This document shows positions 2,111 through 63,484 of a stretch of 64,000 nt of DNA, piece after piece. Numbering within the stretch: position 1 is the stretch's first letter; the number at the start of each line of letters is the position of its first letter. The position numbers were made by a program, and so were the translations under genes. The DNA is from Candidatus Parcubacteria bacterium (GTDB lineage Bacteria; Patescibacteriota; Minisyncoccia; Phycocordibacterales; EsbW-18): positions 2,407 through 66,406 of the forward strand of contig JBDKFZ010000012.1 of the NCBI GenBank assembly GCA_039798445.1, given 5' to 3'. The notes under the pieces were generated by a model, which saw only the letters and a program-made list of their open reading frames with translations, was not told where the DNA came from and did no database searches.

Positions 2111-5475
<3,365 letters not shown>

Positions 5476-8192: not shown

Positions 8193-11100
8193 CTATAAAG
8201 TGCCCGCTTGGGTTTTTATAAGCTCCTGCAAGAGCTGTTTAAGGAGCTCTATGAGCTTGAGCTGGAGCTGTTCAAGTGGCGTCCCCGTGGCTGGTGGCAT
8301 TGTTTCTCCACTCCCACCTCCCCCGCTTCGTCGGTGTGAACCACTACTTCCACCATCATCTTCCTCGTCTTCAGCTGGTGGAGTTTCTTCTTCATTTATT
8401 TCTTCCCAAACAAAAACATCTGCAACCCCATTAGTATCTCCAATTACAAGGTTTGTGTTTGAAGAATAAAAGGAAACAACCGTGCCACCATCAGAAACAT
8501 CTGGATATGAAACAGATGCGCCACCATCCGCAATACCAACACCTTCTGTTATCAATAATTCAACATCCTCTTCTCTGTCGTAACGATATAAATGGAGATC
8601 TTCTCCGCCCTCATCATACGCCGTATAAAAAACATAACGCCCATCTGATGACACGGCCACACGACCGCTCACATATCCATTGCCTGTAACATAGTCATCA
8701 CCAATAAGTTCTGTTGTACCGAGAGTACGGTCTCGAAGAAAGACTGCTCCGCTTCCATTTACTTCATCAGCAGTTAGGTTTGTTGAATCAGACCAAAACA
8801 CAACGTAGCGGCCATCTTCGGAAATAGCTGGGGTTGTCGCCGAAGCGTCACCAGTCACTTCATCACTATCTACATCGACTTGTTCCGTTGTGTCACTTTC
8901 ACGGTCAAACAAAAATACGTTTGTAAGAGAGGTGTCATTATCAAACCGAACATACACAATATATCGGCCGTCGTTAGACAGTATTAGTTCATCCTCATTT
9001 GCATTCAAAAAATACTGATCCTCAGTATCAAAAGCAACTTCTCGGGTAATCGCTTCCATAGTTTGGTCGTAGACAAAAATATCAGTTTTTCCGTTAGTAT
9101 CCCCCACAACAAGATTGGTGGCCTGCGACGTGAACACAATGTAGCGACCATCCTCAGATAGTGCACTTCGTGCAGAATCACTATCTCCCTCTTCGCCTCC
9201 TTCGTTTTTACTTACAAATGTAAGTTCTTCTGTGTCACGATCATAGACAAAAACATTACTTACTCCAACCATATTCTCAGGAAGGAGAAGCCCTGAAGTT
9301 GAAAATAGAACAAAACGTCCATCGCCCGATATCTCTGGCTCCCCTGCATTTTCAACATTTTCTCCTCCCTCCCCATTCAAACTTACGCGCTTAACACTGT
9401 TAGCCTGTCGATCATAGACAAAAATATCGTATGTGCCATTGGTATCATCAGGAACCAAATTTGTTGCGACTGATTCGAAGACAACATAGCGGCCGTCGCT
9501 TGAAATTTTTGGATTTTGCGAAGTTCCGTCTCCCTCTTCTGCCCCATCACTTATACTTACTCGTTCAAAATCAAACGTTATTGCTGGAGCGGCTATGAAG
9601 TTCCATGTTGTTTCGTCTGCAATACCAGCAAAAAGATTTCCGGATTCATCTTCAATCGCAGTTGCGTCTATGTGGAAGTAGTAGTCCGTTTCATTCTCGA
9701 GTGTAACTGTTGGAAAAAGAGATACGAGTGTACTATCAACCGTCACAGCATCTCCATCAGTCACATCGAATGTCTCAACAACACTGTCATCACTTGTCTT
9801 AAATAAAGTGATATTGCCTGTTCCGGCAACGACGGTTTCACTAAAATATAAATCGAACTGAGAAATATCTATTGCGACACCCGTTTCGTCGTCTCCCGGA
9901 GTAAAGCCAACGGATGTTGGCACCGCATCTGACGTGAAATTCCATGTTGTTTCATCAGAGATACCCACAAAACCGTTCCCAACCAAATCTTCAACGGCCC
10001 CTATATCAATAAGGAAATAATACTCTGTTCCCAACTCAAGCGTCACCGATGGATCTATGACAAGCGTGTCTGTTCCCGAAAGAGAAACCAGTCCTCCTGC
10101 AATATCTATTGTCTCCACGACAGAATCATCGGATGCATCGTACAAAACAATATCCCCTGTTGATGTCGCAATGTCTTGTTCAAACGTAATAGAAAATGTC
10201 GCATCAAGACCAATTTCAATAGCACCGTCTGCTGGATCAAATGTCGTAATGTTTGGTATATCAGGATACATATACACGCGACCGTTGTTTACGTTCGCTA
10301 TCATAAAGGAACCATCTGCATCCAGTGCAACTGCGTTCCACCCCTTGTCGGTAGCCCCTGCAGGTTGTTGTTCTGTCCAATTCTCACCACTATCGTCCGA
10401 TGTATAGAGACGACCACTGCTCACAGCGGCTATCAAATGTGAGCCATCAGAATCGGATGCAACAGTGATCCATGACTTATTAACAGCCCCCGCAGGTTGA
10501 CGCTCTGTCCAATCTACCCCTCCGTTACTTGAAGTGTAGAGACGACCATTGCTCACGCTGGCTATCAAATTGGAACCATCGGCATCAGAGGCAACACCCC
10601 ACCACAATGTATCAACATCTCCCGCAGGTTGACGCTCTATCCAATCTACCCCTCCGTTACTTGAAGTGTAGAGACGTCCACCAAGTACGCCGGCTATCAA
10701 GTTAGAACCATCGGCATCAGAATCTACCGATCGCCATTCTCCGTTAACATCTCCCGCAGGTTGACGCTCTATCCAATCTACCCCTCCGTTACTTGAAGTG
10801 TAGAGACGACCATTGGTGGCTATCCCCGCAATAAGATTTGAGCCATCAGCGTCAGAAGCGGCATCCCACCATGATTTTGTGACATCGCCCGCAGGTTGAC
10901 GCTCTGTCCAACTTACCCCTCCGTCATCAGATGTATAGAGACGGCTGTTTTGACCTCCCACAATAAGGTTCGAACCGTCATCATCAGAATCCAAAGCTCT
11001 CCATGAGCCATCAAAATTCCCAATGGGCTGACGTTGCGTCCATGTGATCCCTCCATTACTTGATGTCCAAAGTCTTCCACCACCACCAGAAGCTCCAACA

Positions 11101-11372: not shown

Positions 11373-14096
11373 TTATCTCTGTGTCATCAATTCCTGCAAG
11401 AGCTGTTTAAGGAGGTCAATCAGCTTAAGTTGAAGCTGGATGAGAACGTTAGTGTCCCCATGGAATGACGGCGGGTTGCTGATAGGCTTCCGGTGGGAAC
11501 CGCTTCCGCTTCCCCCATTGTCATCGTCTTCGCCCTCTTCTTCCTCTTCCACTTCCTCTCCTACTTCAAGATCAAATGTCGCAGTGACACTCTGTGCCGC
11601 ACTCATCGTGACAACACATGTTCCCGTACCTGAACATCCACCTCCTGACCATCCTATGAAATCAGAACCATCTGCAGCAACCGCAGTAAGAGTCACCTCG
11701 GTATCTGCCGCATAGTCTTCTGTACAATCAACACCACAGTTGATACCCGATGGGGCTGACGTCACAGTTCCCGAACCCGTGCCATCTTTTGAGACGGTGA
11801 GCGTTTCGGTGCCACCTACACCAGTGTTAAAAAAGAACAACGTTGAGGTTCCACTGTTAATGTCGTAATTACCGACATACAACTCCGTGTCGTCCGCAGC
11901 CAAACCAAGACCGTACACATTCGCTGTACCCACAGGATCAAACGCCGTTGCCGTACCATCTGTTGTGTCGAACGCAGCGAGATAATCACGCGACGTACCA
12001 CTGTTCACATCCGCAAAATCTCCACCGGCATAGAGGAGCGCATCATCTGAAGAGAGTTCAAGCTTGAAGACTAGAGCGTCGGGAACTGGTATAAATGCTG
12101 TTATGAGTGAATTGTCAGACAAGTCGATTCCCAACAAATACGGTGCACTAATTGCTCCGTAGCTGGAGAATTCTCCTCCGACGTATACATCACCTGTTGA
12201 TGTTGAAACTGCCACCGTGTACGAAATGCCGTCAAAGTTTGGATTAAAACTTGTCGCCAACCCCGTAGTTACGTTGAGTTCTCCAAAATACCCCCGGGCT
12301 TCAGAACCAATGTCTGTGAAGTCTCCTACAACATAGAGTGTTGTCTCATCTGTAGAAAGCGCGGTTGAGTGTACGTGTTGTCCATTTCCAGTTACGGTCG
12401 CATCAAACGCAGAAACGAGGGAGCCGTCCGAGGTATCAAGTTTGGCCAAAGCCGTTCTACTTCCTCCACCAATAGTGGTGAACGAACCTCCGGCGTAGAT
12501 ACTTGTTTCATCCGGAGACAGCACAAACGTTCTTATAGTACCATCAGCGTTGGGATCAAACGCCGTTACGGTACCCGCACCGACAGTGGTAAATGCTCCG
12601 GCATTATTTCTTGCTGTTGCCGTTGCGTCGAACGATGTGAAGTCACCACCCATGTAGAGAGTTCCATCATCATCTGAAAGAGCGAGTGCCCGCACGGTGC
12701 TATCTGCATCTGGGTCAAATGCTGTTACAGTACCCGCACCAACGGTGGTGAATGCCCCCACATAGTTTCTAAATGTTGCTCCACCGTCGAACGTTCCAAA
12801 ATCACCTCCCATGTAGAGAGTTCCTCCGTCCGAGGAAAGTGCGAGTGCGAATACTGTCGCGCCCGCACTAGGATCAAAAGCCGTTACTGAACCGTCTGTT
12901 GTGTCGAATGCCGCCACGTAATCTCTTACTGTCCCGTTTTCAACGGAGTTAAACTGACCACCGGCATAGAGTGTTGATCCATCTGGAGATAGTGCAAGTG
13001 CGAACACTGTTGCGTTATCGATATCAGGGTCAAATGCAGAATCTAAAACACCAGACGACGTGATATGTGCAAGGCGTGGTTGTGTTGTTGTTCCAACGTT
13101 CGTAAAACTTCCACCGATATACCATCCCCCCTCACCATCTGGAACAGATGCGTATATTGTTGCCCCCGGACCTCCTAATGTTGAAACCTTTGGATACGCA
13201 ACTGATGCTTGTGTTACTTCATCAAACGGAACCCCTTCACCAGCAAGTGTTCTGAACTCAAGAAAGTTACCACCTACATACAACGTAGTGCCGTCCGAAG
13301 AGCGCGCAAGAACCTGCCCCGCAGCATCGAGAGCAGCATTAAAATTGGTTATATCACCGGTATCACTATCAAATTCGGCTATGTACTCTTGGGGCAAAAG
13401 CCCATTTACGGTCAAAAAATCCCCAGCAGCATACACCGTTGATTCATCTACTGACAATTTAATACTCCATACCGTACTATCAACATCTGGATTAAAGTCA
13501 GTTGCAACACCATCCACGGTCGTAAACCCGGCAATATAGTTTCGAGCCGTCCCGCTATTTACGTCAGTAAATGAACCCCCAGCAAAAAGCGTTGCGTCAT
13601 CAGAAGAAAGCGCTATCGTGTTTACCTCGCCGTTTGGATTTGGATTAAATGCTGTGGCATTACCTGTTGTTGTATCTATTGCTGCAAGGTTAAATCGCTC
13701 ACTTTCGAGACATGCGGCCTCAAACTCCCCGCCGATACACCAAAATGACCCTCCCATGTACAACGTAGAGCCGTCCGAAGAGAGTGCTAGAGATGTCACA
13801 CCCCCGTTAAGGTTCGGATCAAACCCTCCTATCAATGAACCGTCACTCACATCAAACGCCGCAAGATAGTTTCGTGCGGTTGAAAGAGGTTCCCCAACAG
13901 TCGGCGTGATTTGGGTAAAATTACCACCCACGTAGAGCGTGGTGCCATCAGAAACGACAGCGGCAATAGATCCATCGAATTCATACCTACTTTTCACTGC
14001 GTCCGGAATTGAATCAAGCGCAGGTGCGGCATGTACGAAAGAAGGCACCGATGTGAACACGAAGAGAAGCGCGATGAGAAAGAATAGTTTTTTCAT
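11373..14096 (-). CDS. giant secreted surface protein P2 (about 907 aa): signal peptide, about 16 delta-60-like ~50-aa propeller repeats, shared C-terminal SHRKP/helix module (no peptidoglycan-binding domain)
   Basis: Likely start MKKLFFLIALLFVFTSVPSFVHA at 14096 (ORF track starts at 14135). Repeats follow the pattern LALSxDGxTLYxGGxFTxVNGxxRNYxAAFDTxxGxxTAFxPNxN. Tail reads EEEEEGEDDDNGGSGSGSHRKPISNPPSFHGDTNVLIQLQLKLIDLLKQLLQELMTQR. Confidence 0.8.
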   Translation of the reverse strand: MKKLFFLIALLFVFTSVPSFVHAAPALDSIPDAVKSRYEFDGSIAAVVSDGTTLYVGGNFTQITPTVGEPLSTARNYLAAFDVSDGSLIGGFDPNLNGGVTSLALSSDGSTLYMGGSFWCIGGEFEAACLESERFNLAAIDTTTGNATAFNPNPNGEVNTIALSSDDATLFAGGSFTDVNSGTARNYIAGFTTVDGVATDFNPDVDSTVWSIKLSVDESTVYAAGDFLTVNGLLPQEYIAEFDSDTGDITNFNAALDAAGQVLARSSDGTTLYVGGNFLEFRTLAGEGVPFDEVTQASVAYPKVSTLGGPGATIYASVPDGEGGWYIGGSFTNVGTTTQPRLAHITSSGVLDSAFDPDIDNATVFALALSPDGSTLYAGGQFNSVENGTVRDYVAAFDTTDGSVTAFDPSAGATVFALALSSDGGTLYMGGDFGTFDGGATFRNYVGAFTTVGAGTVTAFDPDADSTVRALALSDDDGTLYMGGDFTSFDATATARNNAGAFTTVGAGTVTAFDPNADGTIRTFVLSPDETSIYAGGSFTTIGGGSRTALAKLDTSDGSLVSAFDATVTGNGQHVHSTALSTDETTLYVVGDFTDIGSEARGYFGELNVTTGLATSFNPNFDGISYTVAVSTSTGDVYVGGEFSSYGAISAPYLLGIDLSDNSLITAFIPVPDALVFKLELSSDDALLYAGGDFADVNSGTSRDYLAAFDTTDGTATAFDPVGTANVYGLGLAADDTELYVGNYDINSGTSTLFFFNTGVGGTETLTVSKDGTGSGTVTSAPSGINCGVDCTEDYAADTEVTLTAVAADGSDFIGWSGGGCSGTGTCVVTMSAAQSVTATFDLEVGEEVEEEEEGEDDDNGGSGSGSHRKPISNPPSFHGDTNVLIQLQLKLIDLLKQLLQELMTQR

Positions 14097-36317: not shown

Positions 36318-38141
36318 CTAAGGATTGAGGAGGACCGAATACGTTGTTGCTCCCGAAACCGAGAGCCCCGTGATGTTTTGTGTCGTAAATCCACTTGCCG
36401 ATACATCCAATGTGTATGAAGTTGCAGATAGACCACGGAAGAACGACTGTCCACATGCCGATGAGTCTATGGTTTCATCATACCCCGTTCTACTGAGACG
36501 CACTGATGCGTTTTCGAGCGGGACATTCTGGTCATTCGTGACATACACAAGAAGCGAGTGCGCAGTCGCAGGTGCAAAGATGAAATCAACAATCTGTGAG
36601 ATTGCTGGATTGAGCCCAAATGGCTGGAACGGACAAGCCTCAACAACCGAAAGGCTGCTTTCAGCGGATCCTTTGGTGATGAGGTAGGTGTCCCACTCGA
36701 CGTCTTCAATCGCAAGCGTTCCATCAACTCCGGTAGTGTGTGAATCGGTATATTTGTAGATAGGTGCACCTCCACCATCGGTGCCGATTGTCTTTGCTCC
36801 CTGCATCGTAAAGGTGGTTGTTGGACGTGGAATCGGACCCTCATCATAGGTAATCGTCCACGAACGAAGCGTTGGCGTAACCCATGGGTCACTGCTCTGC
36901 ACATCGCCGACCAGCGCAAGACTGGGATACTCAATAACCGACAAACCAGAAAGATCGACCGGTGATGAACTGAATCCCGAAGAATTGCCGGGAAGATCGC
37001 TGTCAGAAACCAGCACTGATGACGTCGCCGTTGTAGCGAGTAGCGAAACACGCACAGTCGTGCTTGCCATGGCAATCGCATCAAATGCCAACTCATGCCA
37101 TGTATTCAGATATACAGGAGCAACCGATGTGGCAGTCACAGAACCAGTAGAAAAATATGTTCCTGGGGCTCCCGCGAGCGTCACCTCCCCTCCCGACACA
37201 ACAACATCCTCTGCCTCCGCAACCAACGATGAATCAGCAAATGAGTCTGTCCACGTTGCGGAACGAGTCTCGTCAAATGAACGCAATGTGATGTCAGAAA
37301 GCTCGTCGATACGGAACGTTGAAGATGTGATGGTGTCCCCAATAACAGTGAGCGTCCCGGGCATAGGGTTCGGATTCGACGGCGAGGCCAGATAGGTGCG
37401 GTCTGTGCTGTGTCCGGCTTTCGTCGTTTCAATCTGATACGCAGTCGATGTTGGTGCACCAGGAAAATAAGCGACGCCGTCATTGCTCGAAAACGTGGAG
37501 ATGCTGATGTTCGGCGACACGACGGTATTCGTTATTGTTATCTCCGCATTGGATACCGGTGCACCTCCGGCATCAACAACATTCACCACAAGTGTTCCTC
37601 CCCCATCCAAAGTCTCAATGCCTTTTGGAACGACGTTAGTTATGAGCGACACATCGCGGTCGGTGCCACGGAATTGCCATGAGACGCTTACCTTGGCGAT
37701 TTTAAAATCTGCCTGAATCCCATTGGTATCAGAGGGCCCTGTACCGTCCGCAGCATGATCGATGAACTGAACAAATGTACGACGCGTGTAAACAATATTA
37801 TTGAGAGAAATGCTTTCTTCGGGTGGAATAGAACCTGCGGGAATGCCACCCAACACCGCGACGCTGTTGTACGGGAGACTTCGTATATATTCAATCTGTT
37901 CATTGGCGAGCGCAATCGCACCAGTCTTTGCCTTTCCCAATCCCACTGACACCACCGCAAGCCGGATGACACCAAAAAGACCGATGAAAATGAGCAACAT
38001 GAGCGCCGTACCGACCACTGCATCAATCAGAGTAGCCCCGCGCTGGGGCGTAGAAGCACGAAATCCGAATCTCGAAATCCGAAACAAATTCAAAGCTCGA
38101 AATCCTAAATCCAAAACAGGTTGTAAGTTCGTTTTGAACAT
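36318..38141 (-). CDS. large pilin-like protein (607 aa) with prepilin-type N-terminus and a Thr/Ser-rich ectodomain; candidate tip adhesin or major subunit
   Basis: ...QRG|ATLIDAVVGTALMLLIFIGLFGVI prepilin-like segment. The annotated ATG (38141) lies in the loop of a large palindromic repeat cluster, so the true start is uncertain. Confidence 0.65.
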   Translation of the reverse strand: MFKTNLQPVLDLGFRALNLFRISRFGFRASTPQRGATLIDAVVGTALMLLIFIGLFGVIRLAVVSVGLGKAKTGAIALANEQIEYIRSLPYNSVAVLGGIPAGSIPPEESISLNNIVYTRRTFVQFIDHAADGTGPSDTNGIQADFKIAKVSVSWQFRGTDRDVSLITNVVPKGIETLDGGGTLVVNVVDAGGAPVSNAEITITNTVVSPNISISTFSSNDGVAYFPGAPTSTAYQIETTKAGHSTDRTYLASPSNPNPMPGTLTVIGDTITSSTFRIDELSDITLRSFDETRSATWTDSFADSSLVAEAEDVVVSGGEVTLAGAPGTYFSTGSVTATSVAPVYLNTWHELAFDAIAMASTTVRVSLLATTATSSVLVSDSDLPGNSSGFSSSPVDLSGLSVIEYPSLALVGDVQSSDPWVTPTLRSWTITYDEGPIPRPTTTFTMQGAKTIGTDGGGAPIYKYTDSHTTGVDGTLAIEDVEWDTYLITKGSAESSLSVVEACPFQPFGLNPAISQIVDFIFAPATAHSLLVYVTNDQNVPLENASVRLSRTGYDETIDSSACGQSFFRGLSATSYTLDVSASGFTTQNITGLSVSGATTYSVLLNP

Positions 38142-38200
38142 TTGGATTTAGGGTTTAGTGCTTCTTTCGGATTTCGTGCTTCGTGCTTCGGATTTCATCC
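38037..38200. repeat. palindromic repeat cluster (direct and inverted copies of cgaaatccgaa, tandem cgtgctt x2) spanning the pilin start and the pilC stop
   Basis: gaagcacgaaatccgaatctcgaaatccgaaac ... ttggatttagggtttagtgcttctttcggatttcgtgcttcgtgcttcggatttc. Two ~55-nt arms, imperfectly complementary, around a ~26-nt loop that contains the pilin ATG. Confidence 0.7.
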
Positions 38201-38201
38201 C

Positions 38202-39410
38202 CTAGATACCGCTTGAGAGCGAATAAATCGGCGTAATCATGGAGACGGCAAAGAACCCGACCGCAGCACCAATGATGACCATGAGGAATGGTTCGATGAT
38301 CGTCGACATATCTTTTGTCTTCTGATCGACCTCACTCTCGAAGAAGACCGCAATTTGGAGAAGCATCGCCGGGAGCTTTCCAGTCTCTTCACCCACCGCT
38401 ATCATCTCGTTCACCATCGGTGGAAAGAGGCGCTCGTAGCGTGAAAAAACGGCTGAGACCGCTGCACCTTTCTGGATTTCTTGTTCGGCCTCAACAAATG
38501 CTTCTTTGTAATACGAGTTCTGGAGGACATCCCCCGTGATCGATATCGCAGCAACCATGTCGACTCCTGATGAAAGAAGTGACGAGAACGTGCGCGACAT
38601 ACGTGCCGCATTGGTTTCTTTAACCAAGTTGCCGATGATTGGCATGCGGAGCATGACGAACTCGAATCCCCGTTTGCCCCTGCGCGTACGCGAAAGCATG
38701 ATGGCCCCAACGACAAGAAGGATAAGCCCTGCGATAACCGCAATCGGATTTGCAGTGAGCAAATCACTCGATGAGATAACGAGCTGTGTCGTTGCGGGAA
38801 GTTTGACGTTGAGTTCAACGAACGTCGCAGTGAGCGTCGGAACGACGAACATAAGCATGAGGATACCAATGATAATCATCACCGAAAGGATGATGATTGG
38901 ATACATCATCGCGCCACGTATCTTCCGGCGCAGTGCGTAACTGCGATCCATTTGTTCGGCGACGATACGGAGCGAGTCACCGAGCTTACCAGATTCTTCA
39001 CCAGCACGGACCATCGATACAAAGAGCGGCGAGAAAGTCTCTGGAAACTTGGCAAGGGCTTCTGAAAGCGCCGAACCTTTTTCGACATATGCGCTCAGGG
39101 CAACGAGAATCTTCTTGAATTTCTTGCTCTTCGTCTGACGCTCCATAACGGTGAGCGCGCGAGAGAGTGCAAGGCCCGCGTCGACCATCGCCCCAAGGTT
39201 CTTGGCAAAAGTGATCTTGTCGGCGAGCTTTACACCACCAAATGAGATATTGAAACGCGAACCCACGCTTTCCTTATTAGACTCTTCAGCAGTGATGAGC
39301 GTCTTCCCTTCTGTTTTGAGATCGCGCGCAAGCGCGAATTGATCATCCGCTTCGCGGATCCCCTCTTCAACTTCGCCGCTTGATGCGACTGATTTATACG
39401 AGAACTTCAT
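38202..39410 (-). CDS. pilC: type IV pilus assembly platform protein PilC (GspF family, two T2SSF repeats)
   Basis: Three TM segments, duplicated F-domain signatures. ATG MKFSYKSVASSG at 39410; the ORF track starts at 39464. Confidence 0.9.
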   Translation of the reverse strand: MKFSYKSVASSGEVEEGIREADDQFALARDLKTEGKTLITAEESNKESVGSRFNISFGGVKLADKITFAKNLGAMVDAGLALSRALTVMERQTKSKKFKKILVALSAYVEKGSALSEALAKFPETFSPLFVSMVRAGEESGKLGDSLRIVAEQMDRSYALRRKIRGAMMYPIIILSVMIIIGILMLMFVVPTLTATFVELNVKLPATTQLVISSSDLLTANPIAVIAGLILLVVGAIMLSRTRRGKRGFEFVMLRMPIIGNLVKETNAARMSRTFSSLLSSGVDMVAAISITGDVLQNSYYKEAFVEAEQEIQKGAAVSAVFSRYERLFPPMVNEMIAVGEETGKLPAMLLQIAVFFESEVDQKTKDMSTIIEPFLMVIIGAAVGFFAVSMITPIYSLSSGI

Positions 39411-39436
39411 TACGAAAATTGTAGCACGAGAAGCTA

Positions 39437-39548
39437 TTAGCAATTGGCAATTAAAAAACTCCAAATGTATGGCGCAGAGCGGAGTGGATCCGGGTTTTTC
39501 CGAGCCTGCGAGGACAAAACGCGGACCACGCAGCGAAGGTCATACCGC
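39437..39548 (-). repeat. repeat element A2 (inverted copy of A1) in the pilB-pilC intergenic region
   Basis: Aligns to the reverse complement of 26093..26201. Begins with gcaattggcaatt and ends near ggaccacgcagcgaagg. Confidence 0.85.
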
Positions 39549-53000: not shown

Positions 53001-55470
53001 ACGTATAATTGTTTACTGAGGTCATGTTTGGTCCTCCCATGTACACCACACCATCGTCATACGCCAATGCCACACCGGCACTTGAATTAGGTGCTGGGTC
53101 AAAATCCAAGACCTCCGAGGTATCAGTATCAAATGCGGCAACGCGTCTACGTGGATACGCCCCGACATTACTGATGGAGCCAGAGATAAAGAGGATTGTA
53201 TCGTCTGGTGACAATACTAAGGCACGCACGGCACCGTCTGGGTCAGGTATGTCAAAATCTGTTGCCACGCCCGTCTCTGTGTCAAACGCGGCGACACCGC
53301 CACGCGAGACTTCTTCATTGTTTACATAACTAAAACCTCCACCTGCATAGAGAATAGAACCATCAGAAGAAAGAACGAGAGATTCAACGGTGGCATTTAC
53401 ATTCGGGTCAAAACCTTCATCAACAGTTCCCAGGCTCGTGATATGCGCAATATTATTGCGATCTGTTCCTCCAACAGATGTAAACGTTCCTCCGATATAC
53501 CAACCACCATCTCCATCAGAAACAACTACTGAAACTTGTCCTTCTACTTCGGGAAAAGTACTAACCGCTGCCTGTGTTGTTTCGTCAAATGGTATACCAC
53601 CACCCGTTGTGCCTCCACCCACAGCAAAGTCAAAGTTTCCACCAACGTAGAGTGTTGTGCCGTCAGTAACAACGGCGTTTATTGGTCCGTCAAATGAAAC
53701 TCGATTCTTAAGTTCATCAAGAACAGCATCTGGTGGTGGTGCAGCTTGGGTCGTAAAATTCCACGTTGTTTCATCTGCAATTCCTCCATACGCGTTTCCG
53801 TTTTCATCTTCGAGCGCTCCCGCATCGATGGTGAAGTAATACTCCGTTCCATATTCAAGGGCTCCCGTTTCCGGATATAGGTAGACAGTACTACCCCCAG
53901 CCTCTACAGCATCTCCGTCCGTAACATCAAAGGTTTCAACCGTACTATCATCAGAAACCTTTTTAAGAGTTATGTTTCCACTTCCTACAACCATGCTCTG
54001 ATTAAACTCGATAGTAACGTTCTCCTCTGCAAGAAATTCTATTGCAATATTTTCTGCATCATTTGCAGGTGAAAAACTGACAACAACAGGGGCTGTGTCG
54101 GTCGTAAAACTCCATGCCGTTGGATCAGAAATACCTGCAAATGCGTTACCGACAAGGTCTTCAATCGCACCTGCATCTATAAGAACGTAATACCCAGTCG
54201 CTACGTCTAATATCGTAGTGGGATCAATCGTGAGATCTGTACCAGAAACCGTTACCTTGGGACCAGCTACATCTATTGTTTCAATAAGCGAATCATCGCT
54301 TGTTTTATATAGCTCAATAGAACCCGTTGAAGTGGCAATGTCTTCGTTAAAAGTAATCGAGAAGGTTCCATCAACGGCAACTTCTGTTGCTTCGTCTGTG
54401 GGGTCAAACGATAGAACAAAAGGGCCCGTGTTGTCAGGAGCTAAAAAGAAAGCACCGTAACTAGCAAAAGCGATATGGGTTCCATCGGCGTCGGAAGCAG
54501 CGAAGCTTGCTGAGACTTGTCTGTTTCCTCCAGGATTCTCTTCTAACCACGTTTCACCGCTATCCTCGGAAGAAAAAAATCTTGGGGAACCACCATCGTT
54601 GCCGTATACAAACAAATTTGATCCACTTGCATCTGATGTGCCCGCTCCCCAATATACGCCAACATCCCCTGCTGGCTGACGTTCTGTCCAATCCACCCCT
54701 CCGTTTGAAGATGTATAAATACGTCCACTACCACCTGCACCCACAATAAGATTAGATCCATCGGCGTCTGAGGCAGCTATGTTCCATGCTTTACCAACAT
54801 CTCCCGCCGGCTGACGTTCTGTCCAATTGGCACCGCTGTCGCTTGATGTATATACACGACCAGAACCAATATAAGCATCAGCAAAAGTATCAACAACAAG
54901 AAGATTTGAACCATCTGCGTCCGAGGCAACAACATTCCAATCCCTATCAACATCCCCTGCTGGCTGACGTTCTGTCCAATCAACTCCTCCGTTTGAAGAT
55001 GTATAAAGACGTCTACCGCCCGCAGCTACAATAAGATTAGAGCCATCCGCATCTGAGGCAGCAGCGCGCCAGTAGTTGTCAATATCACCCGCTGGCTGAC
55101 GTTCTGTCCAATCAACTCCTCCGTTTGAAGATGTATAAAGACGACCAGAGTACACGCCCGCAACTAAATTGGAACCGTCGGCATCTGATGCTACCGGCCT
55201 CCATTGCTGGTCCTGAGCCCCACCCGGCTGACGTGCTGTCCAATTGGCACCGCTGTCGTCTGATACGTAGATATATCCCGAGCCATCAGCAAGAATGAGA
55301 TTCGATCCGTCGGCGTCTAATGCAACACCGTTAAAAGCGATCTGGTCGTTAGTAGCCGCGCCTGTCGGTCGAGGCTCACCCCACGTGTGTTCTGCAGCAA
55401 ACACTGGCGTCACCTGAAAGACCAGGCTGAGAATTGCGAAGGCGGCGACGCATTTGCGTAGGAGTTTCAT
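50044..55470 (-). CDS. giant secreted surface protein P5 (1808 aa): signal peptide, BNR-like propeller, Big_5-like Ig domains, about 25 delta-60-like repeats, shared C-terminal module, peptidoglycan-binding domain (mosaic of both subfamilies)
   Basis: MKLLRKCVAAFAILSLVFQVTPVFA signal. N-terminus like P4, central repeats like P2/P3. Tail DDDDDDDNGDSGGGSSSSHRGRG...LLALLRSLITQFIAQGGTPSPAMLAFLG...PGBD. Confidence 0.85.
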   Translation of the reverse strand: MKLLRKCVAAFAILSLVFQVTPVFAAEHTWGEPRPTGAATNDQIAFNGVALDADGSNLILADGSGYIYVSDDSGANWTARQPGGAQDQQWRPVASDADGSNLVAGVYSGRLYTSSNGGVDWTERQPAGDIDNYWRAAASDADGSNLIVAAGGRRLYTSSNGGVDWTERQPAGDVDRDWNVVASDADGSNLLVVDTFADAYIGSGRVYTSSDSGANWTERQPAGDVGKAWNIAASDADGSNLIVGAGGSGRIYTSSNGGVDWTERQPAGDVGVYWGAGTSDASGSNLFVYGNDGGSPRFFSSEDSGETWLEENPGGNRQVSASFAASDADGTHIAFASYGAFFLAPDNTGPFVLSFDPTDEATEVAVDGTFSITFNEDIATSTGSIELYKTSDDSLIETIDVAGPKVTVSGTDLTIDPTTILDVATGYYVLIDAGAIEDLVGNAFAGISDPTAWSFTTDTAPVVVSFSPANDAENIAIEFLAEENVTIEFNQSMVVGSGNITLKKVSDDSTVETFDVTDGDAVEAGGSTVYLYPETGALEYGTEYYFTIDAGALEDENGNAYGGIADETTWNFTTQAAPPPDAVLDELKNRVSFDGPINAVVTDGTTLYVGGNFDFAVGGGTTGGGIPFDETTQAAVSTFPEVEGQVSVVVSDGDGGWYIGGTFTSVGGTDRNNIAHITSLGTVDEGFDPNVNATVESLVLSSDGSILYAGGGFSYVNNEEVSRGGVAAFDTETGVATDFDIPDPDGAVRALVLSPDDTILFISGSISNVGAYPRRRVAAFDTDTSEVLDFDPAPNSSAGVALAYDDGVVYMGGPNMTSVNNYTYAQEFIFDTTAEQKSLLPTVNGGNPAVAVSDGDGGWYVGGNFTNLTAQNTARNRLAHILADGTVDPNFDPDLDSSVISLALSSDGEILYAGGYFSTVNGGATTRNKVAAFYTETGVATDFDPNIEGGANAIALSPDDGTLYVTGNFQTVNGATTRHGAAAFDTDTSVATSFDPDLGDSFQAGSSMVLAGSVVYISGDFTEVNGDTTRNRFASFDATTGEVTAFNPNVNDTINEIAVDGSVVYAGGYFSTVNGGTTRNRLAAFDATTGTVTSFDAGISEFDSVTSIALSEDGSLVYVGGNISMVNDDVERLGIAAFDTTTSLVTDFDPGFTGSNSGISEIAVDGTALYIGGSFSLSEYVERNGVAAVDATTGIATDFDPNVNGSVYSLLLSPDGETLYVGGTFGDVNGGTIRNGVAAVDVTTSIATDFDPDITGGRVSGMDFSSDGLTLYAVGELTTVNGDIPRAGFAEFDLATSNVTDFDPALNGGVAAADVADGVVYIGGSFTAAGASTRHNVAAIDLSSYTLLPFDPDINNTVNALALSSDGLTLYVGGTFICVNGIFDGEGGCLGTTRNRLAAFTTVDGVVTAFNPNMASTVNALKLSSDDSILYAGGSFQTVNGGTSRRRIAAFTTVDGVVTAFNPNMSSTVNSLELSADESVLYAGGAFTTVNNGAASRSRLASFTTADGAVTAFNPDVDGTVRALKLSLDESTVFAGGDFGDVNGGDATRNYLAEFTIADSIATAFAPNPDSTVRGLDLSSDGSTLYVGGDFTQIDGLDRLRIASVNSATGEVSDFSPSVDDIDSSVNTLILSPDQSELYAGGAFTGGLAIYTLIEDEIPSGDDDDDDDNGDSGGGSSSSHRGRGVAPASGGTSQDLLALLRSLITQFIAQGGTPSPAMLAFLGAPATTGGTYTRDLDINSEGSDVTALQLFLIAQNKGPQAQALAVVGATGLFGPLTQAALAEYQLSVGITPAAGYFGPVTRAHINGL

Positions 55471-63387: not shown

Positions 63388-63441
63388 CTTATCACACCGT
63401 TGCGGTGACTGCTTGTCCGCCTATCGGCTCCTCCTAATATA

Positions 63442-63472
63442 AAACAACCCCGCATAATGCGGGGTTGTTTTA
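63442..63472. terminator. bidirectional rho-independent terminator
   Basis: aaaacaaccccgcat-aatgcggggttgtttt. Confidence 0.75.
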
Positions 63473-63484
63473 TAACCAGAAGTC

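Follow-up and report, generated by a model that had tools for sequence, protein, structure and literature searches.

A palindromic repeat of a dispersed, cross-phylum family in the leader of a prepilin-like gene of a Parcubacteria type IV pilus operon

Short repeats at the edges of bacterial genes, or within them, have been described in several settings, and these are the background for a palindromic cluster of 7-nt units that lies between pilC and a 607-aa prepilin-like gene (gene 1) in the type IV pilus operon of a Candidatus Parcubacteria bacterium (64,000 nt of contig JBDKFZ010000012.1, positions 2,407 to 66,406; hereafter, the window). In the opa genes of Neisseria, CTCTT repeats in the leader (perfect, long and length-polymorphic) make a contingency locus that is turned on and off by frame-shifting, and the STRR of the cyanobacterium Calothrix form a heptameric repeat array. 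Intergenic arrays of 7-nt units, often paired as inverted stem-loops and in some cases located inside operons (pecE-pecF, proB-proA), have been reported with unknown function, examples being GGGAATC in Xanthomonas, GGGGATT in Nostoc and the paired arrays of Geobacter (PMC4692102, PMC2700814). Correia elements (CREE/nemis) and ERIC are imperfect palindromes, 100-200 bp long and located where genes begin or end, which are co-transcribed, are cut by RNase III or carry RNase E sites, and alter the expression of their neighbours, while RPEs are palindromic repeats of ~100-150 bp that lie in frame within protein-coding genes and are translated in the product (PMC10969869). Finally, MIRUs, which have an internal open reading frame (ORF) coupled to the neighbouring genes, are found inserted at start codons, and expression downstream survives (PMC12548453).

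On balance, we lean towards reading the window cluster as a horizontally spread MIRU/RPE-like palindromic repeat of ~140 nt, lodged in a translational safe harbour as a tolerated or co-opted passenger, with no dedicated role as a pilin switch. The cluster, at 38053-38196 on the minus strand, is a real, non-random, long imperfect palindrome of 7-nt units. The motif GAAATCCGAA has exactly four exact copies in the 64-kb window, two per strand and all at 38060-38196; with one mismatch there are eight copies over the 64 kb, which is not above chance, so that the signal is the clustering itself, and a genome-wide uptake sequence or REP-like motif was rejected because GAAATCCGAA is limited to one site in 64 kb. 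Two 50-nt arms (38059-38108 and 38141-38190), 72% complementary and 32 nt apart, make this palindrome the first-ranked among the inverted repeats listed for the window with arms within 200 nt, and a 17-nt stretch (38053-38069) has a perfect inverted match at 38166-38182. The direct-repeat families are spaced 7, 14 and 25 nt, and Tandem Repeats Finder (TRF) reports period-7 arrays at 38059-38084 and at 38173-38190, the second being a tandem cgtgctt-cgtgctt. No perfect run exceeds 2.6 copies (reached by TTCGTGC at 38173-38190), and the other array has 80% matches and 19% indels; the self-match at a lag of 7 nt is 0.66 in the 5' arm (z=5.6) and 0.53 in the 3' arm (z=4.1). When folded as RNA, the 176 nt at 38030-38205 (minus strand) reach -66.5 kcal/mol (z=-7.25, with 0 of 200 shuffles as good), and as DNA -42.5 kcal/mol (z=-8.27).

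The arrangement of reading frames and stems is as follows (all features on the minus strand). Three nucleotides past the pilC stop (TAG, 38204-38202) lies an ATG at 38196-38198 (TAG-GGG-ATG; hereafter, ATG1), in the same frame as pilC and the pilin ORF, which opens a bridging upstream ORF of 16 codons (MKSEARSTKSERSTKP, 38148-38198) that spans the 5' arm and ends in a TAA (38150-38148), 6 nt upstream of the annotated start of the 607-aa ORF (ATG2, 38139-38141). The A-rich 5' arm (38141-38196, with units GAAATCC and GAAGCAC) and the T-rich 3' arm (38053-38115, with units GGATTTC, GAGATTC and GTGCTTC, encoding leader codons ~10-30, …LDLGFRALNLFRISRFGFRAS) enclose an apical region (38116-38140) that, in the minimum free energy (MFE) structures, holds the last two bases (tg) of ATG2, a GUUC...GAAC mini-hairpin and an unpaired stretch. 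The consensus structure consists of outer, middle and apical stems, plus a separate 5-bp GC hairpin (GCCCC-AGCGC-GGGGC, 38035-38049) over the Q33-R34-G35 codons that appears in all folds, of RNA and of DNA. The first-pass annotation of this locus had described the direct and inverted motif copies, the tandem cgtgctt pair, and a leader followed by a prepilin-like ATLIDAVVG, all of which are borne out, and the suspected folding of the transcript corresponds to a strong predicted hairpin; it had also drawn two arms flanking a loop that contains the ATG, and here the arms stand but ATG2 is at the top of the apical stem and not in an open loop, since the MFE structure has its A as the closing base of the 12-bp apical stem and its G as the first base of the 4-bp mini-hairpin. 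The membership in a dispersed family, ATG1 with its bridging ORF and the essentially Shine-Dalgarno (SD)-less character of the genome are points beyond that annotation. No promoter-like or terminator-like site was found inside the element; a scan of the 64-kb window with Rfam 15 gave nothing at the gathering threshold, and an E-value scan of 37950-38300 gave sub-threshold matches only, nearly all to eukaryotic miRNA-precursor hairpin models.

The window element is, by profile similarity, one copy of a cross-phylum family of dispersed palindromic repeats, whose conserved core is TTTGAATTTGTTTCGGATTTCGAnATTCGGATTTCG(TGCTTC) and its complement, set within arms of 7-nt units. An nhmmer profile built exclusively from 16 arms of copies outside the Candidate Phyla Radiation (CPR), with sources among Thermoguttaceae and Aminicenantes assemblies and a 4.6-Mb contig, recovers the window at 38094-38055 (E=2.2e-10) and its other arm, on the opposite strand, at 38165-38195 (E=1e-4), and the window arm is identical at 40 of 43 nt (~93%) to the copy in a metagenome-assembled genome (MAG) of Thermoguttaceae (locus L078). 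At the protein level, a profile of the window-type (type A) leader peptide retrieved ~200 tiny 'hypothetical proteins' reading …NPKSEIRNPKQIQ…MFKT…LNLFRISDFGFRI, and an exhaustive HMMER search with the translated-element peptide profile gave 3,887 representatives at E<=1e-3, of which 381 reach E<=1e-10; among the 150 matches listed, almost all are ORFans of ~50-280 aa. The named sources are MAGs of Thermoguttaceae, Deltaproteobacteria and Aminicenantes, and one copy lies on a 4.6-Mb contig. At six non-CPR places (L077-L082) there are DNA hairpins with the same core as in the window, located between unrelated genes (MFS/ROK, eCIS genes, LexA/ImuB-like), with a GC content of 0.30-0.40 for the element vs 0.40-0.66 for the host. 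It is unlikely that these copies are mis-binned CPR DNA, because their flanks have 47-66% GC and one of the contigs is 4.6 Mb long.

The geometry of the non-CPR copies resembles that of the window copy. In four of them (L078, L080, L081 and L082) the element sits between co-directional genes, with its ORF starting at the upstream stop as ATGA (L078, L080), as TAATG (L081) or 5 nt further on (L082), and ending 6-8 nt before the next start (TGA and 6 nt to the ATG in L078) or overlapping it. All three frames are poor in stop codons, with 1-3 in the non-CPR copies vs the 9-14 expected, and the arms end in terminal inverted repeats of the type AAATCCGAAGCAC… / …GTGCTTCGGATTT in the window, L078 and L080-82. 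Two copies each, within a few kb, were seen in L079 and L081, and two (at genes 1 and 3) in L073-75. The element had no blastn match in the PLSDB plasmids or the INPHARED phages, the exact core pattern had 0 matches in IMG/VR, and a literature search for the arm DNA and the peptide words returned no papers, further literature searches yielding analogies only. In two proteins from other phyla (P0251 and P0275), the translated element is located upstream of, and fused to, a hydrophobic signal-like segment of an apparently real protein (e.g. a CxxCH cytochrome); these are either over-extended ORF calls or a sign that secretion leaders, too, are permissive sites.

How such an insert could be compatible with expression of gene 1 depends on the translation style of the genome. 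An SD-like motif precedes just 4 of the 35 genes (long ORFs) of the window, many of which have instead a -10-like box of the TAYAMT type (TAnnnT), often ~5-15 nt upstream of the ATG (e.g. 39418-39423 and 1318-1323), which suggests leaderless transcripts. The operon-internal cistrons of the window begin 0-3 nt past the preceding stop, as seen in the pilus operon for gene 2 (TAG-AAT-ATG) and gene 3 (GTGA overlap). A TTG at 38093, with an AGGA 9 nt upstream, was set aside as an alternative start because this genome does not use SD sites. Unlike most genes of the window, gene 1 has no such box before its ATG2, nor an SD motif, and therefore translation of gene 1 would come from ribosomes leaving pilC, ATG1 being the codon that obeys the local rule. 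Translational coupling drops fast with distance (PMC12548453), so that an untranslated insert of 140 nt would be costly; with SD motifs nearly absent and starts 0-3 nt after the stop, an insert of this length at a junction should be tolerable only if it is translated through, and the cost would be low if what is read through ends up in a cleavable leader.

Gene 1 has a leader of 35 aa, MFKTNLQPVLDLGFRALNLFRISRFGFRASTPQRG, followed by ATLIDAVVG, and its N terminus has the features of a prepilin: RG followed by ATLIDAVVGTALMLLIF, with glycine at position -1, a hydrophobic alpha-1 N segment and, at +5, an acidic residue. The G35 codon (38037-38039, minus strand), located as the cleavage position (immediately before ATLIDAVVG) from the translation and the N termini of homologues, is predicted to be the point at which prepilin peptidase cuts the leader; G35 and D40 are invariant in an alignment with the 18 closest homologues, and ~81 of 120 homologues fit Gx[ST][LIVM][LIVMP][EDQ] (cleavage after the G) near the N terminus, mostly with leaders of ~5-15 aa. 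The Pfam N_methyl motif was not detected in gene 1, though it was in gene 2. The element fills the gap from the pilC stop codon to the predicted prepilin cleavage site. In the mechanism that we propose, ribosomes ending pilC would re-initiate at ATG1 (38198) and, by reading the 16-codon bridging ORF, melt the 5' arm until the stop at TAA (38150); a second re-initiation 6 nt on, at ATG2 (38141), would then have the 3' arm read as an extended prepilin leader, which prepilin peptidase would take off at G35, leaving the mature pilin unchanged. In sister lineages, that frame continues from ATG1 into the pilin without a stop, for leaders of 46-60 aa. The cleavable leader would thus be a safe harbour for the element, in the manner in which MIRUs and RPEs persist. 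The hairpin probably ties pilin translation strictly to pilC translation, and by analogy with other palindromic repeats it may also be a site of RNA processing or stability; such effects on expression would be a side effect or a secondary co-option.

The homologous loci (70 obtained via the pilin gene, and more via exact-protein look-ups, labelled as MAGs of Patescibacteria, Saccharibacteria or Kaiserbacteria) were compared over the spacer that separates the R-G codons from the pilC stop. The type A element of the window is also present in L071, L072, L073-75, L004 and L076, whose pilins are from 97% down to 61% identical to that of the window. In L072 and L004 the spacer has 97% and 91% identity to that of the window, against 53-63% and 40-43%, respectively, at third codon positions in the flanks, and in a sliding comparison with L072, L004 and L076 conservation along the locus peaks at the element. 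Among the 43 consensus pairs there is one compensatory change (C-G to U-A) and five one-sided changes compatible with wobble pairing. The spacer is base-for-base identical in the window and L071 (an independent assembly, pilin 97% identical) and, likewise, in L073, L074 and L075, which are three samples of another lineage; nine contigs carry an identical P0008 protein. ATG1 is kept in L071, L072, L073, L004 and L076, and in L073, L076 and L002 the frame equivalent to that of ATG1 has no stop and is continuous into the mature pilin (leaders of 46-60 aa in these sister lineages). All eight distinct spacer lengths of the close clade (24-177 nt) are divisible by 3, the indels seen between lineages measure 18 and 21 nt and keep the frame, and every leader inspected is in the 'on' frame. 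L001, at least as near to the window as L072 (pilin 89% identical, pilC 3' end 91% at the nucleotide level), has no element, only a 24-nt spacer and a 9-aa leader, MSIAHSRRG; short leaders are also found in the close homologues P0006, P0007 and P0016. GC mini-palindromes analogous to the 38035-38049 hairpin come after the element in L072, in L073 and at gene 3 of L002 and L073, and an 18-nt GC-rich mini-palindrome, GCCYGCCTGCGCAGGCAG, lies inside the 3' arm in L004 (~3076-3094) and L076 (~271-289), keeping the frame and adding ARLRRQ or ACLRRQ to the leader.

Other lineages carry unrelated 7-nt units at the same site: TTCCAAn / TTGGAAT in L029, CCAAAnT / CTTGGAA in L002, a perfect CTGGAAG x4 in L043, CCCTTAY x5 in L052 and TAGNNNN x5 in L041. 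In 175-nt windows upstream of the cleavage codon, folds with z<-3 occur at 10 of 51 gene-1 sites vs 3 of 137 control windows. Nor are the repeats limited to gene 1: type A units are also present in the gene-3 leader region of L073-75 and of L002 (leader MFKNFKNMNPFRISDFGFRASTTMSGLRRG, then YIVIS), the latter having a palindrome of another type at gene 1, while L029 has its own type at genes 1 and 2, L051 one at genes 2 and 3, and L001 one at gene 3. Over the 64-kb window and 76 CPR loci, all profile matches fall at prepilin-leader positions of the three pilin-like genes. When filled gene-3 sites are aligned with empty ones, a clean insert of ~150-190 nt separates the start region from the (H)RG codons; no target-site duplication was seen in the filled-vs-empty alignments at gene 3 and gene 1. 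The empty leader sites of the window (gene 3), L072 and L001 hold AGCAYCG (gene 3, AAGCATCGA; gene 1 of L001, AGCATCGCT), and the empty target AAGCAYCGA resembles the terminal unit of the element, GAAGCACGAA, which could be a microhomology target or a coincidence.

Compared with the described systems, the window element is closest in kind to MIRUs and RPEs. As with MIRUs, a small repeat sits at a cistron junction with its own ORF coupled, at the level of sequence, to both neighbours (TAG and 3 nt to ATG1, TAA and 6 nt to ATG2 in the window; also L078, L080 and L081), and mycobacteria, like the window genome, use many leaderless or SD-less starts; MIRUs, however, are direct tandem units of 40-100 bp without heptamer substructure, occur in mycobacteria only and have no sequence similarity to the element. 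The likeness to RPEs is that the 3' arm in the window, and both arms in L073, L076 and L002, are translated as an N-terminal extension, but RPEs are found at many internal positions of unrelated proteins and are kept in the mature protein, whereas the window insert lies in a leader predicted to be removed; moreover, RPEs are restricted to a genus while the present element crosses phyla, and the likeness is one of description between unrelated organisms. Correia elements and ERIC suggest that a hairpin cut by RNases would be the most likely kind of side effect here; these families are restricted to a genus or family, and the 26-bp terminal inverted repeats, TA target duplication, IHF site and promoters of Correia elements were not found in the window element. 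Of the features of a miniature inverted-repeat transposable element, the element has the terminal inverted repeats, and neither a target-site duplication nor a related insertion sequence (IS) or transposase was found. No RAYT homologue, as would accompany REP/REPIN, was found in the window by tblastn with the L073 Y1_Tnp query, and there is one element copy per 64 kb, where REP/REPIN would number tens to hundreds per genome. The known heptamer arrays are G-rich or species-specific and have not been reported as translated, in contrast to the A/T-rich core of this cross-phylum and ORF-compatible family. With opa the window shares short repeats, of a length that is not a multiple of 3, in the leader-coding part of a surface-protein gene, but its repeats are degenerate and palindromic, and they do not vary from one independent assembly to another.

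Several points weigh against the reading as a mobile passenger. No transposase, parent IS or target-site duplication was identified, so the argument for mobility is one from distribution, and the 64-kb window has one copy only. The 97% conservation (vs ~58% at silent sites), together with the exclusive link to pilin genes in the CPR loci, fits a selected host function at least as well. Both samples are biased, the CPR loci having all been fetched via the pilin gene, so that absence elsewhere in these genomes is weakly tested, and the non-CPR copies having been found via called ORFs, which favours copies that bear an ORF. Furthermore, in L029, L043, L040 and L010 related heptamer palindromes occur without ATG1, with a gap of 30-75 nt lacking a bridging ORF, and therefore the relay is not universal. 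A Y1 (IS200/RAYT-like) transposase was considered as the mobiliser and rejected: it is present in L073/74 only, with a different flanking palindrome, and tblastn finds none in the window or the other loci. The gene in L073 (996-1631, minus strand, between pilB and pilC; likewise in L074) encodes a 211-aa Y1/HUH transposase-like protein (PNHFHFL; weak Pfam Y1_Tnp match), and beside it, at 1660-1710, there is a near-perfect palindrome, GTGAGGTGAAACCTCAC…GTGAGGTTTCACCTCAC, that is absent from the window.

The same conservation data bear on whether the hairpin, as RNA or single-stranded DNA, was instead selected as a dedicated cis-regulatory device that sets the dosage of the minor pilin, by occluding ATG2, by serving as a site of RNase III-type processing or of RNA stability, or by attenuating read-through from pilC, and was recruited repeatedly because it is useful. 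We regard this as unlikely, although several observations favour it: conservation along the locus is highest in the element, the substitutions in the consensus pairs (one compensatory, five wobble-compatible) respect the stems, strong folds are enriched at gene-1 sites, heptamer palindromes of unrelated sequence recur at the same position of genes 1, 2 and 3 in many lineages, the CPR matches are all in pilin leaders, and Correia and ERIC are known substrates of RNase III and RNase E (PMC10969869). On the other hand, the device would be missing in L001 and in the short leaders of P0006, P0007 and P0016, other phyla have the identical core between unrelated genes, the element has no terminator-like or promoter-like site, and the antisense strand folds better than the sense strand in the window, L072, L073, L002 gene 1 and L052; selection specific to the sense RNA was rejected, as sense and antisense MFE show no consistent bias. 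The first-pass annotation had suggested that the structure sequesters the start codon; a real hairpin does engulf ATG2 and is conserved far above neutral expectation in several homologous loci, so that an effect is plausible, but in an SD-less genome 'sequestering' takes on another meaning. It had also allowed that homologous loci might have an ordinary short 5' untranslated region, with the repeat as strain-specific noise: L001 does have a 24-nt spacer without repeats, yet the noise part is contradicted by the conservation peak against L072, L004 and L076. The absence of strand preference is compatible with an array of sites bound, at the DNA level, by a nucleoid-associated (IHF/HU-like) or other, unknown protein, as has been suggested for paired heptanucleotide arrays in Geobacter metallireducens (PMC2700814); primary sequence is conserved beyond pairing in both arms and across phyla, and three 7-bp units amount, arithmetically, to two helical turns. 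We nevertheless find this improbable, given that neither a candidate protein nor a match to a known consensus was found, and that the heptamers are wholly different at one site in neighbouring lineages (window vs L029 vs L002), which would need fast co-evolution of the binder. The narrower proposal of a regulator-site array specific to pilin expression is countered by the same sequence lying between unrelated genes in other phyla.

Phase variation, the other suggestion of the first-pass annotation, would work through slippage of 7-nt units between the start and the mature pilin, each slip changing the reading frame (7 mod 3 = 1) and thereby switching the pilin on or off. The unit length is indeed not a multiple of 3, the array does lie between start and mature sequence, perfect 4-5x heptamer arrays exist in the pilin leaders of L043, L062 and L061, and heptameric simple sequence repeats are over-represented in bacteria, possibly by polymerase slippage (PMC4692102). 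In the window, however, the units are degenerate (at most 2.6 perfect copies), repeat copy number does not change between assemblies (window and L071; L073, L074 and L075), nine contigs carry an identical P0008 protein, the 18- and 21-nt indels preserve the frame, all leaders inspected are 'on', and the complementary upstream arm would be left unexplained, which makes such a switch very improbable here; for lineages with perfect 4-5x arrays it is conceivable. The arrays concerned, which are plausibly slippage-prone sites unlike the window copy, are AAAGTCA x4 and AATTCGA x5 in L061 (5020-5060), ACTTCAG x4 in L062 (~5030-5075), CTGGAAG x4 in L043 (~455-490) and, with one variant unit, GATTCAC-type x4 in L051 (~4795-4830). 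We give least credit to the idea that the peptide MFKT…LNLFRISxFGFRAS is itself selected as an extended pro-peptide, e.g. for targeting or delayed pilin processing. It is basic and hydrophobic, as would suit a cytoplasmic N-region, and genes 1 and 3 of different genomes read the element in one peptide frame (GGA TTT CGT GCT TCT = GFRAS), but the non-coding 5' arm is as strongly conserved as the coding arm, the same peptide words occur in thousands of ORFans between unrelated genes, and most homologues have leaders of 5-15 aa dissimilar to that of the window.

Extending the passenger reading, we tentatively put forward a new family of 'translation-transparent' palindromic repeats across phyla, with 7-nt units, few stops in every frame and an apical ATG, that would colonise operon junctions via termination-reinitiation and, in SD-less CPR bacteria, persist only in cleavable prepilin leaders, giving leaders of 35-60 aa on three pilin-like genes; a stronger form, offered as an idea, is that the host co-opted the hairpins and accompanying heptamer arrays to tune or switch expression of minor pilus subunits. 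Palindromic repeats of the MITE/MIRU/RPE kind are known, and what would be new here is the unusually broad distribution and the in-frame lodging in prepilin leaders. If this reading is true, the long repetitive prepilin leaders of Patescibacteria would be embedded repeats and not functional pro-peptides, and thousands of metagenomic 'hypothetical proteins' (the ...NPKSEIRNPKQIQ...MFKT...LNLFRISDFGFRI ORFans) would be translated palindromes. The ~93% identity over the ~43-nt arm core between CPR and Planctomycetota-type copies, in a family absent from Rfam, would then imply very broad horizontal spread or a universal recognition factor. The locus would also be a testable case of expression surviving an insertion under leaderless or coupled translation, with a bearing on the annotation of start codons in CPR genomes.

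The operon in which the element lies is on the minus strand, in the order pilB (41418-39556, T2SSE), pilC (39464-38202, Pfam T2SSF E=1e-55) and the three pilin-like genes: gene 1 (38141-36318), whose 607-aa prepilin-like product has C-terminal CarboxypepD_reg domains, gene 2 (36314-35706), a 202-aa pilin with an N_methyl motif, and gene 3 (35709-34294), coding for a 471-aa protein with the N terminus KHRG-YIVIS (cleavage after the G). The true start of pilC is likely the ATG at 39410, which has a TACAAT box before it. Just in front of the -10-like boxes of two genes, pilC and an unrelated one at ~1311, the heptamer AATTGC[CT] (TRF consensus AGCAATT on the plus strand) is repeated 3-4x (39432-39453 and 1325-1353, respectively), and could be a shared promoter-proximal element.

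Other repeats and insertions were seen in the window. The 23S rRNA (2112-5475) is 3,364 nt long vs a model of 2,925 nt, corresponding to an insertion of ~440 nt that, like the taxonomic labels of the relatives, fits a Patescibacteria (CPR) genome, and has a 27-nt inverted repeat inside it (4695-4752); genes of the 23S_rRNA_IVP type are present in related loci (L072, 1266-1646; L082, 15576-15986). Long tandem repeats with periods of 132 nt and 159 nt (10405-10924, 12551-12848 and 54947-55244) lie within very large ORFs (1,025-1,809 aa), as would fit giant surface proteins that have repeated domains. Finally, a perfect 18-nt palindrome with a 1-nt centre, TATAAAACAACCCCGCAT/ATGCGGGGTTGTTTTATA, located between two genes at 63438-63474, looks like a bidirectional terminator.

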